A stretch of DNA of 64,000 nt from Enterobacteria phage KhF2. Where the stretch lies: the sequence record KT184314.1, one strand, 5' to 3'. Position 1 is the stretch's first letter. Each line of letters opens with the position of its first letter. The position numbers and the translations under genes are program-made. Under the pieces are notes generated by a model. It ran no database searches and was not told where the DNA came from. It saw only the letters and a list, made by a program, of their open reading frames with translations. Of the stretch, positions 7,194 through 61,114 are shown piece by piece.

Positions 7194-7376
7194 TTGTTCT
7201 ACAAAGGAGACTTAATGAGAAAATCAAATAAACCGAAGAAAGGTAAGAATACCAATCACTGTAAGGAATCAAAAAGGGTAGAGTTAATCTACTATTCATC
7301 CTCTGAAATTGGTCTGTACCTGTTCTTTCAAAATTACAGAAGACAAGAGGATTATCTATGTGTAGTTCCCAATTAG
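7194..7376 (+). CDS. hypothetical small basic protein
   Basis: ORF track; AGGAG RBS upstream. Confidence 0.3.
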   Translation: MFYKGDLMRKSNKPKKGKNTNHCKESKRVELIYYSSSEIGLYLFFQNYRRQEDYLCVVPN

Positions 7377-13559: not shown

Positions 13560-14013
13560 AGAAGTAGTGCAAAGAGCAATGCTTGACAATTCTACTAAAG
13601 ATGAGATGTACACAGAAATTTGTGATAAGTTGAACTGCTCAAGACATGCTGCTAAGGTTCTTGTACATTGTTTTATTTGGGAATGCTCAGAAGCCTATAT
13701 GAAACACGTAGCTTTTGAGAGTTCTCATTTACTCGGTGATGCAAAAATAGGTGTAGCACTAAAAGAGCCTGAGATGAAAACAGTACCTAAAGTTGGTAAT
13801 GTGTATAAACTAAAAAATTTTATTACAGGCGAGATTGTTGCAGAAGGTGAAGTGCAACAGGTTTATCATGATGGTAAATATCTGTTTAAGATATTCGAGT
13901 ATGATAGTCGTTACAGACACTTATGTGGTATTACATTTTTAGTTTCAGAGGATGACCTCATCAAGAACAATAGTAATAAATTCGCAGTACCAGAATATCA
14001 AGTTTTACGATAA
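13549..14013 (+). CDS. hypothetical protein
   Basis: ORF track. Confidence 0.5.
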   Translation: MKIKEVVQRAMLDNSTKDEMYTEICDKLNCSRHAAKVLVHCFIWECSEAYMKHVAFESSHLLGDAKIGVALKEPEMKTVPKVGNVYKLKNFITGEIVAEGEVQQVYHDGKYLFKIFEYDSRYRHLCGITFLVSEDDLIKNNSNKFAVPEYQVLR

Positions 14014-14026
14014 TGGTGTGATAGAT

Positions 14027-14575
14027 ATGGAAAAAGATAACTTAAAAGAAGTTGAAGGTAACTACTTAGTACTTGACTGGAAGGATGTTCGGGAAGCACT
14101 CTCCGAAGAAAATCTTGACTGGTTCGAACAAATTATCTTTGCAGTACGGCATAACAGAGAAGTTGAAAATGGTAAAGAGCCACTTGAAGGAATCTTTGTA
14201 GAAAGGTCTTATCCGTTCTATGAAGACACTTTGCAGAAAGTTAAGATGTACTTTAAACAGAAGAACCGTAAAGTGGTCACTATGGTATCTCTTGGTGGAC
14301 AGAGTATGTCTGTGATGGAAGATATCAACCCTAAGAGACCGAGTAAAGGTGTTTGTATAAAAATCACAGGTCATGAAGAGTATATCTCAGTTGATGACTT
14401 TAGTGCATTCTGTAATGGCTCTTGTGTCTTTAATGGTTTTCACTATGATATCCGAGTGTACCCAATCAAGGGAGATGATATCATGATGCAGGTATTTGAT
14501 AACAACAACGGATTTACTCATTTTTATCAGACAACCAAGTCATCATTAAAAACAGTTCTGGAAACACTGATTTAA
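14027..14575 (+). CDS. hypothetical protein (start moved to internal Met to remove 62 nt overlap)
   Basis: ORF track 13952..14575; in-frame ATG at 14027. Confidence 0.45.
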   Translation: MEKDNLKEVEGNYLVLDWKDVREALSEENLDWFEQIIFAVRHNREVENGKEPLEGIFVERSYPFYEDTLQKVKMYFKQKNRKVVTMVSLGGQSMSVMEDINPKRPSKGVCIKITGHEEYISVDDFSAFCNGSCVFNGFHYDIRVYPIKGDDIMMQVFDNNNGFTHFYQTTKSSLKTVLETLI

Positions 14576-14585
14576 AATATCTTAA

Positions 14586-14614
14586 GAGCCTCCTTAATCG
14601 GGGGCTTTTTTATT
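14586..14614 (+). terminator. rho-independent terminator ending the plus-strand block
   Basis: AGCCTCC-ttaatc-GGGGGCT followed by TTTTTTATT. Confidence 0.65.
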
Positions 14615-14619
14615 GAGTA

Positions 14620-16100
14620 AAATTTACGAAATTTATATTTTTTATAAAAATTTTATCGGTTGTCCCAACCTCTGGGTCACCATCATATGTGAATAAAGTA
14701 TCTACCCTTCTTAACAACCTTCTTAAGCTTACTCTCTATATAGTTATATAGTACTATATAGTATCTTAGTAACTATCTAGTGGTCTTAATAGCCCTCTGT
14801 ATAGCCCTTCTAAACACTCTTCTAACAAGCCTTCTTAACAACCTATACAATCACCTTAACCATCTCTCTACATCCTCTTAGAAGCTCCTATACACCTCTT
14901 AATCTCTATGTCAGCTATGATACTCTCTATAGGTGTTCACTAGGTGCTACTAAGCCTCTATATAGACTGTTTTAACAAACTTAACAGGAATGTCTTCACA
15001 GACCTTATCTCACAAGGTCTAACACGGTACTAACAAGGTATCTTATAAGCCTGTTATTACCTGTATTTTAGAAAGACTGTATAGGTAATTATTCAGATTT
15101 TTAAAATTTTTATAAAATAGGACTATCAAGTCATTTTTTAGGGTCTTTGAAGGAACTGAAAAATATCTGTAGAAGATGTATATCTGCTTGGTAGCCCTTA
15201 ACAACTCCCTTACAAGTACTTTGCAAAATTTTAAAATATCATTAACAATTCCTTAACAACTCTCTCAAGTTCTTAACATCTCTTCAGAGGTCTTAACAGA
15301 TTCTTAACAGAACTAACAAGGTTGTAACAAGTTCTTAACAGTTGATACATAGGCTTTACAGAATCTTAACAGATGACTAACAAGAGCTAACAAGTTAATT
15401 TTTAAGAGTTATTTTGTTAAGATAATTAACAAGTCTCTAATAAGTGTTTAATCTTTTTAACAAGCTATTAACATGGTCACTACTCTTTTCTTATCGTTCC
15501 CTTTCCTTTCTTAGTGATTCTTTAAACATACCTCTTAAAAGCTCTCTATAGCCCCTTGTAAGCCCTTTTAAGCCTCTTCCTAGTAATTACACCCCAACTG
15601 TACAGATACCTCTTTATAGGGCTTTACAGGAGCTTTTAAGGCTATGTCAAAGGTTCTTACAAGGCTTTTACGTGGTCTTAACAGAGATTTAACAAGGGGC
15701 TAACAAGTCTCTAACAAGTGCCTTAAAAGCATAACTATGTAGGGATTGTTAAGAAATTGTTAAGAAAATGTTAAGGGGGCTAGCATTTACGTAACTTTTA
15801 AGCAACTTCAAAGTAACTTTATAGCCCCTATAACATACTTTTAAGACACTAACAAGCCCTTTTTAGATATTCACAAGAATACTAATGAGATGATAAAGCT
15901 TACACCCTTATAAGATTCTTTTAAGTCTCTGGGAAGCTTTATAAAGGGCTTTTAAGGGTGAGGTAATGCAATCCCTTAAGTTAGGTTGATAAGGCTGTTA
16001 TAGAGCTTTATAGAGCGTTTAAATGGGCCATCCCCTTTCTGGGGTTATTGGCTTTTATTTAAGTTGATTTGATAAGAGGTTATAGAGTAGACTATAGAGT
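14620..16100. repeat. non-coding iteron field: more than 30 copies of (C)TTAACA(A/G) / CTAACAAG in both orientations
   Basis: No ORF of 60 aa or more on either strand; motif recurs every 10-40 bp (e.g. 15291-15400 has ten copies); lies where convergent transcription units meet. Confidence 0.7.
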
Positions 16101-16167
16101 TATTGTTTTTAAGGTCTGATAAGATTCTGGAAAGGAAAGGAAAAGGATTGTATAGAGGCTATTACAT

Positions 16168-16195
16168 AGACGTAAAAAGCCCCATTTTAAGGGGC
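16168..16195 (-). terminator. rho-independent terminator ending the minus-strand small-gene array
   Basis: Minus-strand reading AGCCCCTTAAAATGGGGCT followed by TTTTTAC. Confidence 0.6.
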
Positions 16196-16234
16196 TGTTC
16201 AGGTATCTGGGGCTATTTAGCCCCGTTGCGTCGA

Positions 16235-16483
16235 TTAGTTATAATCTTGTTTGTTGTAGTACAGGGAGACGATTTTTTCTCCCCAATAGTGATAAGTATA
16301 ACCATCCTTGAGAACTTCTTGTTTTGTTTCCTCCCAGAACTCATCCGAAGGATTATAATCTTTGATGGTCTGACTGATAAGACATTTCACCATTTCAAAG
16401 GCGTTATCAGTGCCTGCAATGTCAAATTTAACATCCAGAGAGGAAAAACCGAACTCGTTAACAGTAGCGCGGATAGTTGCCAT
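16235..16483 (-). CDS. hypothetical small protein (array gene 1)
   Basis: ORF track; conserved leader module directly upstream. Confidence 0.55.
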   Translation of the reverse strand: MATIRATVNEFGFSSLDVKFDIAGTDNAFEMVKCLISQTIKDYNPSDEFWEETKQEVLKDGYTYHYWGEKIVSLYYNKQDYN

Positions 16484-52688: not shown

Positions 52689-52863
52689 GTAAGCCTCTTT
52701 TAAGTAGCTATTAAGTTTTAATCTTTTATCTTAACGTATTCTATACGTTATACTTTAAAGCTTTTTAAAAGCTATTAAATAATCTTTTAAGAATTTTAAA
52801 GTATCTGTATAGTTAAACTGTTAAGTAACCTTTTAAGTAAAAACCCACTTCGCAAAGATTAAC

Positions 52864-52888
52864 ACCTTGTCAAGTGCATTGTCAACTT
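52864..52888. promoter_or_regulatory. conserved operator/promoter-like motif ACCTTGTCAAGTGCATTGTCAAC in a divergent intergenic region
   Basis: Near-identical to 7093-7118 (ACCTTGTCAAGTACTTTGTCAAC); TATAAT box 10 bp downstream. Confidence 0.5.
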
Positions 52889-52945
52889 GCTTTTTATAAT
52901 TTTTTGCAGTAATGTATGAGGTTAATGATTTTAGAGGGAGTAAAA

Positions 52946-55645
52946 ATGGAAAACGTAGATTTTAAAAACTTACATTTAGTTGGTGATACAGAAACTGATG
53001 GTTTACTCCTTGAGTTCACTAAAGTGCACGTAATGGCCTTTGCAGACTATAAATCTGACGATGAAGAGCCACCTGTATGGGTCTTTACAGATGAACCTAT
53101 TCTCGGTCACAAGTACACCAAGTACATCAAGGGTGGCTTACGTGAAGGTATTGAGTTTGCGTTAAAGGCAAAACGTCTTTGCATCCATAATGGTCTCGGT
53201 TATGACTGGTGGGTTTTCAATCACATTGCACCTGATTTATGGAACTTTGATAATCCAAAGTGTAAACCGTGGAGTAATTTCTTTCAGGATTCTCTTATCC
53301 AGTCTCGTGTTCAGTGGATGGATAGACCAACTCCAAAGGGTTATAAAGGTGCTCATGGTTTGGCTGCATGGGGTGCTCGTGTTGGTGTTCGTAAACCAGA
53401 GATTGAACACTGGGGTGTGTGGAATGCAGAAATCTTCACTCGTGTTGTAGAAGATATCCGTATTAACGCCAAAACTAAACGGGCACTTGATAACGAGTAT
53501 CTCAAGCTTAAGAAGTGTGGCATAGACACTTATGAAACTTACATGAGAGCTAAAGAGACATCTTTCTGGATGAGCCAACAAGCTATCAATGGTTGGAAAG
53601 CTGATAAAGAGCTTATGGAGTTTCATGTAAAGGAACTTGACAAGTTGACTAATGAGCTTGCTTCAGAGGTTGAACCACATCTACCTCCAACTATTAAGAC
53701 CAAAGGTAAAGTCACTGGAGAAGAGTTTGCAAAAGCTTGGAATGAGTATGTTGAAGCATTTGGTCATGCAGATGGACTGAAAAGAATTACCAAGTACCCT
53801 AAGACGAAGTATCGTCAGCAGGTTCGTAATGGTGAGATGCAGACTTACGCTATCAAACCTTTTGGTAAACCAACTACCAAGATTTTCAACATTGAGAAGC
53901 GGAACTGCTACACTCCAACTAACACAGTTACTGGAGAAGAGTACAAGGAAGGTTTTGTAGCAATGAAGGATGCTCGTGCAATTTGCAACGAGTTGAATGC
54001 AAAGATTGGTAAGAAATGCAAAGACTGGAAGCCAGTAAAAACAGTCAAAACTGTGAAGTACTACAACAGTCATGTTGTTAACCACTTTGAACTTGAGTCA
54101 AGTCGCTATACAGGTTTGATTGATGCACCATATACACCAATTGAGTTCGAAGTTTCTCGTATGACTCAGGTAGCAGTTGTTAAAGACTACTTGAAATCAG
54201 TTGGTTGGATTCCAGATGACTGGAACTACAAGAAAGACTCAGATGGTCGCCCTGTCAAAGTTTGTCGTTTCAAAGACAACAAAAAGATGATTACAAAGCA
54301 TCCTAAGTGGCAGGAGATGGTTGAACGGTGTGGCTTGAGTTATGTTGAACATGAAGGTGTCCAGTACATTGAGCATAACTGGTCTGTGAAGAAGTACACA
54401 GATTTGCTTGAGCCTTGCTTAATCCGTACTTCACCAAAACTTACTGAATCATCTTATGATACGATTGAAGGCGAGCTTGGACAGAAGATTGCTAAATACT
54501 ATACTTTGATGCACCGACGTAGAACTATTGAGAACTCAAAGGATGATGAAAAAGGTTGGTTGAACCAGATTCGTCCTGATGGTCGCCTTAGTGCTGGTGC
54601 AATGGTGTTTGGTACTTCAACTGGACGTATGACACAATATGGTATTGTAAACGTACCGTCTGGTGCTGCTGTCTATGGGGAACCAATGAGGGCAGTGTGG
54701 ATTTGTGAAGAAGGTACTAACGTCGTCTCTGTAGACATGAACTCAGCCCAGCTAGTTCTTCTTTGTAACTTTATGGGTGATAAAGAGTTCACCAAAGCGG
54801 TAACGCAAGGTAAAGAAGAGATTGAGTTTATTCGTCAAGAAGATGGACGCTATTACTGCAAACATTTTGATGAGTACCTCAACCCAGAGATTGATAAGTA
54901 CCTTCGCTATGACTCTGAGAATGACCTTTACGTTGTCTATTCAGGGACTGATGCACACACACTGAACAGTATTTACTTTAGCTTGAATGATGAGCAGGAT
55001 ATCTTGACTTGTCGAGCTACTCAGGATGAGAATCTTCTTCATGAGATTAGTAAAGGTCGTAAGAAAGCTAAGAATGGTATCTATGCACTGCTGTTCGGTG
55101 CAGGGGATGAGAAGTTTGCTAAGACGATTAAAGCTGCAACTACTCAGGAAGGTGCACTGACTAAACAAACTTACTTTATTCGTTTGCCTAAAATTAAGAA
55201 GCTACTAGATGACTTGGAAGCTGACTACAAAGCAACTAAAAAGGCACTTGAAGAGGTGTTTGGTAAGACTGCTGCAATCTCTAAAGGGGGTTTTGTAAAG
55301 GTTGCTGGAGCTTGGTTGTGGTGTAAATCTCCACACAAACTGTTGAACTACCTTTTGATGGGTTCAGAGGCCCAGATTCAAAATGAGGCAATTAACCTTG
55401 CTTGTCGTCGCATGATTGCCGAAGGGTTGATGAAGCTAAATGGGCGTAAACCAGCTATAGGTGCTCGCTTATTGTGCGCATATCACGATGAGACTAGCTG
55501 GGAATGTCCAGAGAGTATGACGGCAGAAGTAAAAGCAGTTACTGATTGGTATTACGGGCAAGCTTCTAAGAACTTAGGTCTTAAGAAAGAAACACTTGTA
55601 ACTGGTACAGGTAAGGTTGGAAAGAGTTGGCTTGAGGTTCACTGA
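52946..55645 (+). CDS. family A (Pol I-like) DNA polymerase with N-terminal 3'-5' exonuclease-like region
   Basis: Exo I-like DTETDG; Pol A motif A (VDMNSAQLVLL), motif B (RKKAKNGIYALLFGAG) and motif C (YHDE); start set at ATG 52946 after GAGGGAG RBS (track start 52916). Confidence 0.75.
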   Translation: MENVDFKNLHLVGDTETDGLLLEFTKVHVMAFADYKSDDEEPPVWVFTDEPILGHKYTKYIKGGLREGIEFALKAKRLCIHNGLGYDWWVFNHIAPDLWNFDNPKCKPWSNFFQDSLIQSRVQWMDRPTPKGYKGAHGLAAWGARVGVRKPEIEHWGVWNAEIFTRVVEDIRINAKTKRALDNEYLKLKKCGIDTYETYMRAKETSFWMSQQAINGWKADKELMEFHVKELDKLTNELASEVEPHLPPTIKTKGKVTGEEFAKAWNEYVEAFGHADGLKRITKYPKTKYRQQVRNGEMQTYAIKPFGKPTTKIFNIEKRNCYTPTNTVTGEEYKEGFVAMKDARAICNELNAKIGKKCKDWKPVKTVKTVKYYNSHVVNHFELESSRYTGLIDAPYTPIEFEVSRMTQVAVVKDYLKSVGWIPDDWNYKKDSDGRPVKVCRFKDNKKMITKHPKWQEMVERCGLSYVEHEGVQYIEHNWSVKKYTDLLEPCLIRTSPKLTESSYDTIEGELGQKIAKYYTLMHRRRTIENSKDDEKGWLNQIRPDGRLSAGAMVFGTSTGRMTQYGIVNVPSGAAVYGEPMRAVWICEEGTNVVSVDMNSAQLVLLCNFMGDKEFTKAVTQGKEEIEFIRQEDGRYYCKHFDEYLNPEIDKYLRYDSENDLYVVYSGTDAHTLNSIYFSLNDEQDILTCRATQDENLLHEISKGRKKAKNGIYALLFGAGDEKFAKTIKAATTQEGALTKQTYFIRLPKIKKLLDDLEADYKATKKALEEVFGKTAAISKGGFVKVAGAWLWCKSPHKLLNYLLMGSEAQIQNEAINLACRRMIAEGLMKLNGRKPAIGARLLCAYHDETSWECPESMTAEVKAVTDWYYGQASKNLGLKKETLVTGTGKVGKSWLEVH

Positions 55646-60609: not shown

Positions 60610-60822
60610 ATGGCTCTTAAAAAGTTACATCCCAGAAGCGGTTATGGTAAGATAATTGACGATACAGACGGCTTTACAGTCTTTACAGTCATCTGTCAGG
60701 ATGATTCACAGATTGAAAAGGCTCTTGACGATTATCTTAATGATGAACGTGAAAAGGTCAGAGCTACAAACATAGACTCATTAATTGATACTTCACGTAA
60801 ACGGAAGAAGAAAGATGAATGA
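60610..60822 (+). CDS. hypothetical small acidic protein
   Basis: ORF track. Confidence 0.45.
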   Translation: MALKKLHPRSGYGKIIDDTDGFTVFTVICQDDSQIEKALDDYLNDEREKVRATNIDSLIDTSRKRKKKDE

Positions 60823-61114
60823 GGTTTTTGACCCTTATGCTCCACAAGATGATTGGGAGGCTGATAGAGAGGCTGAAATGGAGAGTTATATTTGTCCAAT
60901 GGATGTAGACGAGATGAGGGATTTCGTTGCACATCGTTTTAAGAGAGAGATTAAATCCAGAGGTCTTTCTCAAGAGCAAGTTGCTAAAATTTGTGGTATC
61001 TCTCAAGCTCGTGTATCCAACATAATCCACCTCACTGGGAATGTCTCTCTTGAGTATATGTTGGGTGTCTGTGAAAAATTTGGTGTTAATTTTAATTTAA
61101 GGTTGGCAGATTAA
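60815..61114 (+). CDS. helix-turn-helix DNA-binding protein
   Basis: HTH-like segment LSQEQVAKICGISQARVSNIIH; start set at ATG 60815 overlapping the previous stop (ATGAATGA); track start is 60785. Confidence 0.5.
   Translation: MNEVFDPYAPQDDWEADREAEMESYICPMDVDEMRDFVAHRFKREIKSRGLSQEQVAKICGISQARVSNIIHLTGNVSLEYMLGVCEKFGVNFNLRLAD

Follow-up and report, generated by a model that had tools for sequence, protein, structure and literature searches.

Phages related to Felix O1 have short direct terminal repeats (DTRs), and those described so far lie at the same locus, between the same gene blocks and with homologous boundaries, at lengths of 570 to 651 bp (for example, 608 bp in UAB_Phi87 and 581 bp in Pr103Blw; PMC4837284, PMC8303462). 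A DTR packaging mechanism with 581-bp terminal repeats was reported for Pr103Blw, whose ends were determined with PhageTerm (PMC8303462), and the 608-bp DTR of UAB_Phi87 was established by Bal31 digestion and run-off sequencing (PMC4837284). The papers and records on these DTRs give repeat length and position only. Here we describe the homologous locus of Enterobacteria phage KhF2 (record KT184314.1), a gene-free field at positions 14620 to 16100 of a stretch of 64,000 nucleotides that was analyzed as a whole and is referred to as the window. The field is filled with short, helically phased motifs that have a TAACA core. A limited literature search found no published account of phased TAACA arrays, of mirror-image boundaries, or of the second motif present in the flanks, and the homologous intergenic field of Bas63 (70,493-72,154) is not treated in the PhageMaP paper on that phage. 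The DTR of Felix O1-like phages is already published and is annotated in a few records, which removes most of the mystery of the field; the phased arrays, the mirror-image boundaries, and the second flank motif add a new and clearly delimited case of repeat arrays located at the terminal repeat of a phage.

The region of about 1.8 kb around the field has matches in 255 phage records, 192 of them with at least 80% coverage, and all are Felix O1-like myophages (Ounavirinae). The top match, Felixounavirus KhF1 (97.5% identity), assigns the KhF2 window to Felixounavirus. Exact terminal repeats are present in four deposited records: Pr103Blw (581 bp), Ro111lw (613 bp), NBEco005 (651 bp), and Mooglevirus HP1 (570 bp). 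All four of these records begin with GCCCCCTTAACA and finish with TGTTAAGGGCTACC, and their identical boundaries correspond to window positions 15190 and 15780. For example, the 581-bp repeat that the Pr103Blw record annotates at its start and end as a "short direct terminal repeat" aligns to window 15780..15190 with 89.5% identity. The UAB_69 record has a DTR annotated at the equivalent place (618 bp), and the homologous boundaries in UAB_Phi87 are 614 bp apart. The UAB_Phi87 record was not opened at the DTR, and therefore this boundary-to-boundary distance was set against the published DTR length. When 15190-15780 was compared with the window by BLAST it matched only itself, and it is thus present as a single copy. 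Because the DTRs of relatives map to 15190-15780 and the window holds one copy, the field is almost certainly the collapsed genome-end (concatemer-junction) region of a Felix O1-like myophage, with a DTR of about 591 bp.

As judged by this homology, the DTR would occur once in the replicating concatemer, as it does in the assembly, and at both ends of the virion DNA. The ends are fixed and non-permuted, in that the boundary sequences are identical in the four DTR-ended records and nearly invariant in an alignment of 13 genomes from Felixounavirus, Suspvirus, and Mooglevirus (the window and 12 relatives). The gene for the large terminase (TerL) of this phage lies outside the window; its Bas63 homologue has Terminase_6N and Terminase_6C domains, and a Felix O1-like DTR cluster has been reported among large terminases (PMC4837284). 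The features of the locus are as follows, with a slash marking the position of a cut.

14586..14614, plus strand: Rho-independent terminator (placed by the terminator scan at 14590-14604, followed by a T run; the KhF1 record annotates a terminator).
14615..15189, no strand: left non-coding flank, 575 bp; in the virion this would be sub-terminal DNA ahead of the DTR copy that ends at 15780.
14734, 14925, and 14956, plus strand: copies of CTCTATA in the left flank.
14736-14763: three 10-bp TATATAG units in the left flank.
15176..15203, plus strand: left DTR boundary, TGTATATCTGCTT/GGTAGCCCTTAACA, cut before 15190, nearly invariant in the 13 genomes and three genera.
15190..15780, no strand: DTR, 591 bp, a single copy in an apparently collapsed assembly, to which the DTRs of relatives map.
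15220..15240, plus strand: AT-rich element TTTGCAAAATTTTAAAATATC, about 30 bp inside the left boundary.
15241..15394, plus strand: main phased array, with 15 slots across about 150 bp, TAACA invariant and spacers variable.
15413..15476, plus strand: second array, one inverted TGTTAAG and then TTAACAAG, CTAATAAG, TTTAACAAG, and ATTAACATGG.
15477..15650, plus strand: pyrimidine-rich DTR center, composed of 10-11-bp units of a looser motif (period 10).
15654..15729, plus strand: third phased array, CTTACAAGG, CTTTTACGTGG, TCTTAACAGAGA, TTTAACAAGGGG, CTAACAAGTCT, CTAACAAGTGC, and CTTAAAAGC.
15747..15796, minus strand: right DTR boundary, cut after 15780, then /TAGCATTTACGTAAC.
15781..16165, no strand: right non-coding flank, 385 bp; in the virion this would be sub-terminal DNA after the DTR copy that starts at 15190.
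16168..16224, minus strand: two hairpins that close the minus-strand gene block, from the terminator scan and the sequence.

The original prediction, which was made from the letters of the window, described 14620-16100 as a field free of open reading frames (ORFs) of 60 or more amino acids (aa), located between two converging transcription units and bracketed by their terminators. Each of these points was borne out: the longest ORF within the field is 53 aa, and the terminator scan placed both terminators where they had been noted. The prediction also described a dense array of short repeats of the kind that proteins bind, and such an array is present. Its count of more than 30 copies is correct for the 5-bp core TAACA, which occurs 28 times on the plus strand and 6 times on the minus strand (34 in total), but too high for longer motifs such as TTAACA (17 plus and 4 minus) and YTAACAR (23 plus and 3 minus). 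The motif does occur in both orientations, as claimed, with a strong bias toward the plus strand. YTAACAR has a density of 17.6/kb in the field versus 1.1/kb in the remaining window, a difference of about 15-fold. The motif frequency is also above expectation, the 28 plus-strand copies of TAACA comparing with a mean of 3.3 (standard deviation, 1.8; maximum, 11) in 2,000 dinucleotide-preserving shuffles of the region.

The phased runs that had been noted are likewise genuine. Successive plus-strand TAACA sites are separated by exactly 11 bp in 10 of 27 gaps, the spacing of the repeat units is 9 to 13 bp and mostly 11, pairwise distances cluster at 11, 20-22, 31, 42, 51-53, and 62-64, and the periodogram peak for the motif is at 10.4 bp, a peak equalled by 1 of 2,000 random placements. 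Within the 64 kb, phased TAACA pairs are nearly confined to the field, with two chance pairs elsewhere. The DTR carries 23 of the 34 TAACA sites (19 plus and 4 minus), and about 20 motif sites, phased at 10.4 bp, fill it on one face of the helix. Motif copies are present in both flanks as well as inside the DTR; the left flank, with a mean identity of 0.85 to the 12 relatives, has seven TAACA on the plus strand and one on the minus strand. The main array comprises 11 canonical (C)TTAACA(A/G) or CTAACAAG sites and four degenerate ones (CTCAAG, TTCAGAG, ATACATAG, and TTTACAG), and the looser units of the DTR center are CTCTTAAAAG, CTCTCTATAG, CCCTTGTAAG, CCCTTTTAAG, CTTTATAGG, and CTTTACAGG. A scan of IMG/VR with the pattern TTAACA-N4-6-TTAACA-N4-6-TTAACA was set aside as too unspecific, returning at least 120 unrelated contigs with giant-virus bins among them.

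Selection on the motifs is indicated by the alignment of the 13 genomes. Within the DTR, identity to the window is 96.7% in TAACA columns versus 81.2% in spacers within 4 nt, 81% of these TAACA columns are invariant, and when the mask was shifted circularly, 1 of 590 shifts equalled the contrast between motif and spacer identity. Every one of the 13 genomes has 19 to 22 plus-strand sites in the DTR with a period of 10.2 to 10.5 bp. Length changes inside the arrays consist of whole 11-, 12-, or 22-bp units, and in the third array relatives differ by entire 11- or 22-bp units. The inverted copies of CCCTTAACA at both DTR boundaries are nearly invariant across the three genera, and the last 60 bases up to 15780 (aligned over 54 to 60 nt) are 83 to 100% identical in all 12 relatives; over the whole DTR, the Mooglevirus genomes have only about 77% identity. 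Because motif columns outlast spacers, arrays change by units of 11 to 12 bp, and the boundaries are nearly invariant, the CTTAACA(A/G) and CTAACAAG motifs are very probably selected, sequence-specific protein-binding sites. Selection on the motifs is seen directly in the alignment; from it we infer protein binding. Similar sites are found beyond the three genera. The distant Ounavirinae member Pectobacterium phage Arno18 has a gene-poor field of about 1.45 kb between two gene blocks, with one small annotated ORF inside, and this field contains 8 TAACA and 14 TGTTA. The AT-rich element TTTGCAAAATTTTAAAATATC is the most widely conserved part of the DTR, reaching Arno18, and lies in a segment matched over positions 30 to 73 of the DTR query.

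Gain and loss of whole units is also what slippage would give, and the repeats might have arisen neutrally, through slippage or recombination in DNA free of genes, with no sequence-specific function. However, the motif is held while the spacers drift (97% versus 81%; 1 of 590 shifts), it is retained across three genera whose flanking genes are more diverged, and the strand bias, the helical phase across the DTR, and the mirror-image boundaries are all kept in the 13 genomes. A neutral origin of the arrays is thus scarcely credible.

If the motifs are read by a protein, that protein might be one of the host, with the field serving as a sink or a regulatory hub. TTAACA is one base off the sigma-70 -35 hexamer TTGACA, and head-to-tail repeats of 10 to 11 bp resemble the sites of OmpR/PhoB-type response regulators, so that both motif and spacing recall host factors. 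The motif is also kept in phages of Escherichia, Salmonella, Citrobacter, Shigella, and Pectobacterium, hosts that share these factors. However, a sigma-70 promoter scan found 13 matches versus 13.1 expected, which is no excess, and GTTACA, the canonical half-site of OmpR, is present a single time in the field. Apart from two chance pairs, phased sites do not appear elsewhere in the 64 kb, promoter regions included, and a host protein would leave the exact genome ends unexplained. We consider this explanation very improbable.

In all four DTR-ended records the left boundary reads, in window orientation, ...TATCTGCTT/GGTAGCCCTTAACA, and the junction in the window is CTT/GGTAGCCCTTAACA. The right boundary has three inverted copies of the motif (TTGTTAAG, TTGTTAAG, and ATGTTAAGGGGGC; 15747-15777) 11 bp apart and reads GCTA/GCCCCCTTAACA on the minus strand, which makes it the mirror of the left boundary. 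Because the boundaries read CTT/GGTAGCCCTTAACA and, on the other strand, GCTA/GCCCCCTTAACA, each physical end would start with CCCTTAACA 3 to 5 nt in. Short repeated elements abut both cleavage positions in helical phase, as at terminase recognition sites of the cosB or pac type. A second motif is mirrored in the same way, with CTCTATA on the plus strand in the left flank and the DTR and its complement, TATAGAG, on the right; these copies are nearly all of the occurrences of both words in the 64 kb. The right flank has TATAGAG five times (15999, 16009, 16081, 16093, and 16151), which is five of the six copies in the window.

The best overall explanation, which we regard as probable, is that this is a DTR and terminus region whose motif arrays serve packaging and the generation of ends. 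For the specific job of the motifs, packaging and end formation is the assignment toward which we lean, by a modest degree. On this reading, the arrays would provide a platform for the packaging and end-generating machinery, that is, the large terminase and a DNA-binding partner. A cooperative array could nucleate the complex at the concatemer junction. Because the sites at the two boundaries mirror each other, a single enzyme that cuts or nicks the strand bearing the motif could act at both, on opposite strands and about 591 bp apart. The repeat might next be duplicated by strand-displacement synthesis, in keeping with the classical scheme for ends of the T7 type.

The concatemer junction of T7 offers a precedent for such a scheme. 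T7 has a small terminase, gp18, and packages from concatemers with duplication of the repeat. Its DTR, too, is short and exact, and a T7 motif of 7 to 8 bp, ACCTAAAG, is found within the repeat and about 12 times past it. At the left end of the T7 record, copies of CCTAAAG lie inside the 160-bp repeat and about 12 more follow just beyond it at a spacing of 13 bp. Dunn and Studier reportedly named these short-repeat arrays SRL and SRR. The likeness between the KhF2 field and T7 is one of geometry alone, an analogy with no relation in sequence or phylogeny: T7 is an unrelated podovirus with an unrelated motif at a non-helical spacing of 13 bp, and its arrays lie mostly outside the repeat, whereas those of KhF2 lie mostly inside. 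Helical spacing is found at other packaging sites. In P1 pac, seven TGATCA/G hexamers flank the cut; lambda cosB has R3-R2-R1, and SPP1 has pacL and pacR boxes. In each case clusters of short motifs beside the cut, about one helical turn apart, are thought to wrap the DNA on an oligomeric small terminase. KhF2 differs in having about 20 to 34 putative sites and a DTR mechanism, in contrast to 3 to 7 sites, pac or cos cleavage, and a known binding subunit.

Several points weigh against assigning the arrays to packaging at mapped genome ends. The ends of KhF2 itself are placed by homology with those of relatives, and published boundaries lie a few bp apart (608 versus 614 in UAB_Phi87; 618 annotated in UAB_69). 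The analogous arrays of T7 are not known to have a firmly assigned function. The cut and CCC are separated by 5 nt on the left and by 3 nt on the right, and therefore the boundary sites fall short of full equivalence. In addition, the genus is reported to have no recognizable small terminase (PMC4837284), and no DNA-binding partner for the motifs was found among the flanking ORFs, none of which has a Pfam domain. A 66-aa ORF directly upstream of the large terminase gene in Bas63 (gene 1, 1-201; outside the window) is a small-terminase candidate by position, but it is improbable as the DNA-recognition subunit. It belongs to a PHROG of unknown function, has no Pfam match, and has near-identical homologues only among 5.8 billion proteins, and its strong acidity (net charge of about -7) makes it an implausible DNA binder.

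The helix-turn-helix protein encoded at 60815-61114 (HTH_3), which the original prediction had named as a candidate binder, is of a generic Cro/C1 type and is conserved in the three close genera; it has no tblastn match in the Arno18 group, which also has TAACA arrays. The comparison leaves this candidate neither favored nor dismissed. Because the subfamily has no recognizable small terminase, a protein of another kind can tentatively be proposed. The approximately 20 phased CTTAACA sites could load a non-canonical packaging-initiation protein, and the mirrored CCCTTAACA could guide the nicking of specific strands at positions about 591 bp from each other. This proposal is speculative, and we hold it to be rather doubtful in this specific form. 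If it is true, the locus would be a sequence-defined system for studying how the terminal repeat of a phage with a short DTR is measured and duplicated, and the loading protein would represent a new kind of terminase partner.

Sites at the ends of the genome might also act after injection rather than during packaging. A protein on the ends could protect them from exonucleases, pause or order the entry of DNA, or pair the ends for the formation of circles or concatemers. The sites are present at both physical ends, each reading CCCTTAACA inward, and phasing on one face would suit a filament or a bridging protein. The ORFs of both terminal gene blocks are small and have no known function, as is typical of early genes. 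Phage T5, with a repeat-rich non-coding "injection stop" region in its terminal repeat, provides a comparable case. However, the exact, conserved cut positions adjoin the motif, which argues that the enzyme that makes the ends reads it. A function after injection would be compatible with one in packaging, and sequence alone cannot separate the two; as the explanation of the arrays we consider it quite unlikely.

The original prediction called the repeats iterons, and they could be the initiator sites of a replication origin in or beside the DTR. The origin would then lie at both genome ends, and its position there would be incidental. Like the iteron origins of plasmids and lambda ori, the field is non-coding and has dense direct repeats that adjoin AT-rich DNA (40-mers at 14610-14649, 15090-15129, and 15390-15429). 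It has one consensus DnaA box, at 14696, and a literature search found no paper that maps the origins of Felix O1-like phages. However, a core of 8 to 9 bp with a period of 10.4 to 11 bp differs in both unit size and spacing from iterons of about 20 bp (17 to 22 bp, with two-turn spacing). The DnaA box has disappeared from the Mooglevirus group, and the window as a whole has eight boxes of this kind by chance; an IHF consensus scan of the field found none. No initiator-like gene was found among the eight flanking ORFs with Pfam and PHROGs, a result that would allow for a novel initiator. The GC-skew check that had been proposed also turned out unfavorably: the field is at a local maximum of the cumulative skew, not at a minimum, and the global minimum, at 52689-52915, is a more conventional candidate. 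The iteron label therefore fits poorly, and an origin is an unlikely explanation for the arrays. The 52689-52915 segment is itself a divergent 227-bp intergenic gap with 24.5% GC, directly upstream of a 909-aa DNA polymerase ORF (52916-55645), and may be a replication origin or a divergent promoter hub.

A partition site had also been listed as an option. The closest known system in array geometry is parC of plasmid R1, a type II plasmid centromere with ten 11-bp direct repeats to which ParR binds cooperatively; in both cases short repeats run head to tail and coat one face of the DNA. Unlike parC, the field has no parM- or parR-like genes among its flanking ORFs, and partition would meet no evident need of a phage that is strictly lytic. 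The original prediction held that nothing in the sequence could decide among an origin, a partition site, a packaging site, and a binding array. The comparison with related phages that it had suggested shows otherwise: the region is present and conserved in them, and it maps to the genome ends with the DTR at 15190-15780. A packaging site, which was among the options listed, is the one we modestly favor.

Assignment of the field to the genome termini, with arrays that probably serve packaging, has practical consequences. Felix O1-like phages find use in the typing and biocontrol of Salmonella, and Bas63 serves as a model for engineering. In most GenBank records of the genus, which have been opened at an arbitrary position, the 1.6-kb field is blank or filled with spurious tiny ORFs; recognition of the true ends and the likely packaging signals would allow this annotation to be fixed. 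For engineers, the field delimits DNA that should be left undisturbed as well as DNA that could make a plasmid packageable. The array and its two mirror-image boundaries are also a compact, highly conserved target for finding the component that recognizes DNA in packaging.

A gene-free stretch of about 1.65 kb is located at the equivalent place in every annotated relative, flanked by a plus-strand block and a minus-strand block of small hypothetical genes, each with a terminator. In the window, the plus-strand block ends with a 207-aa ORF, whose stop codon is at 14573-14575, and is closed by the terminator at 14586..14614. The minus-strand block has its terminator at 16196-16178, with a T run after it. 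Between this terminator and the stop codon of an 82-aa minus-strand ORF lies a second conserved hairpin, GGGGCTATTTAGCCCC (16209-16224), giving tandem hairpins. In the linear virion, as judged from this arrangement, both terminal gene blocks would be transcribed toward the ends, and the terminators would insulate the repeat. Pfam and PHROGs searches with the eight ORFs flanking the field returned no domain and only PHROGs of unknown function. An Rfam scan of 14400-16400 at E<=1 found no known RNA, the sole match being a sub-threshold Phe_leader on the terminator. Five ORFs of 31 to 53 aa in the field were rejected as genes because none keeps its frame open throughout 13 relatives, in which stops or frameshifts interrupt them.

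The genes flanking the field (13952-14575 and 16235-16483) are mosaic among relatives, with 67 to 100% identity over their last or first 200 bp, and the upstream ORF has no BLASTN match in Mooglevirus. In relatives whose flanking genes are mosaic, the DTR ends are 78 to 100% identical. The flanking genes vary as much as or more than the DTR ends, and thus the non-coding ends are at least as constrained as the neighboring genes. Window positions 14576-16234 correspond to 14555-16245 of the UAB_Phi87 record (JN225449), so that the coordinates are almost equal and the two records share orientation and start. The genome from which the window comes was thus probably opened at the arbitrary point used for UAB_Phi87, with the terminase gene past the end of the window. 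The sequence GATC does not occur in positions 1-64000 of the window, versus 190±13 occurrences in shuffles; this absence is already published for the genus, VpaE1 and Alf5 having no MboI sites (PMC4690856, PMC5477317).

The left flank also contains a perfect 16-nt inverted repeat, TTTTATAAAAATTTTA at 14640-14655 and TAAAATTTTTATAAAA at 15102-15117, with the copies 446 bp apart and both in AT-rich stretches that are conserved in relatives. Palindromic insertions of 22 to 28 bp are present in the field of some relatives and absent in others, at sites that align to window positions of about 14590, 15175, 15395, 15481, 15512, 15862, and 16030. Examples are TTGATTCGGTAGAATCTACCTCAT, GGGATTGGTAACAATACCAATT (which also occurs in inverted orientation), and GGATTCGATAGAATC, which lies within a terminator loop. 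The window has no copy of these insertions, the sole match, with 3 mismatches, being at 7238. In the relatives that carry them, they resemble tiny mobile hairpin elements.

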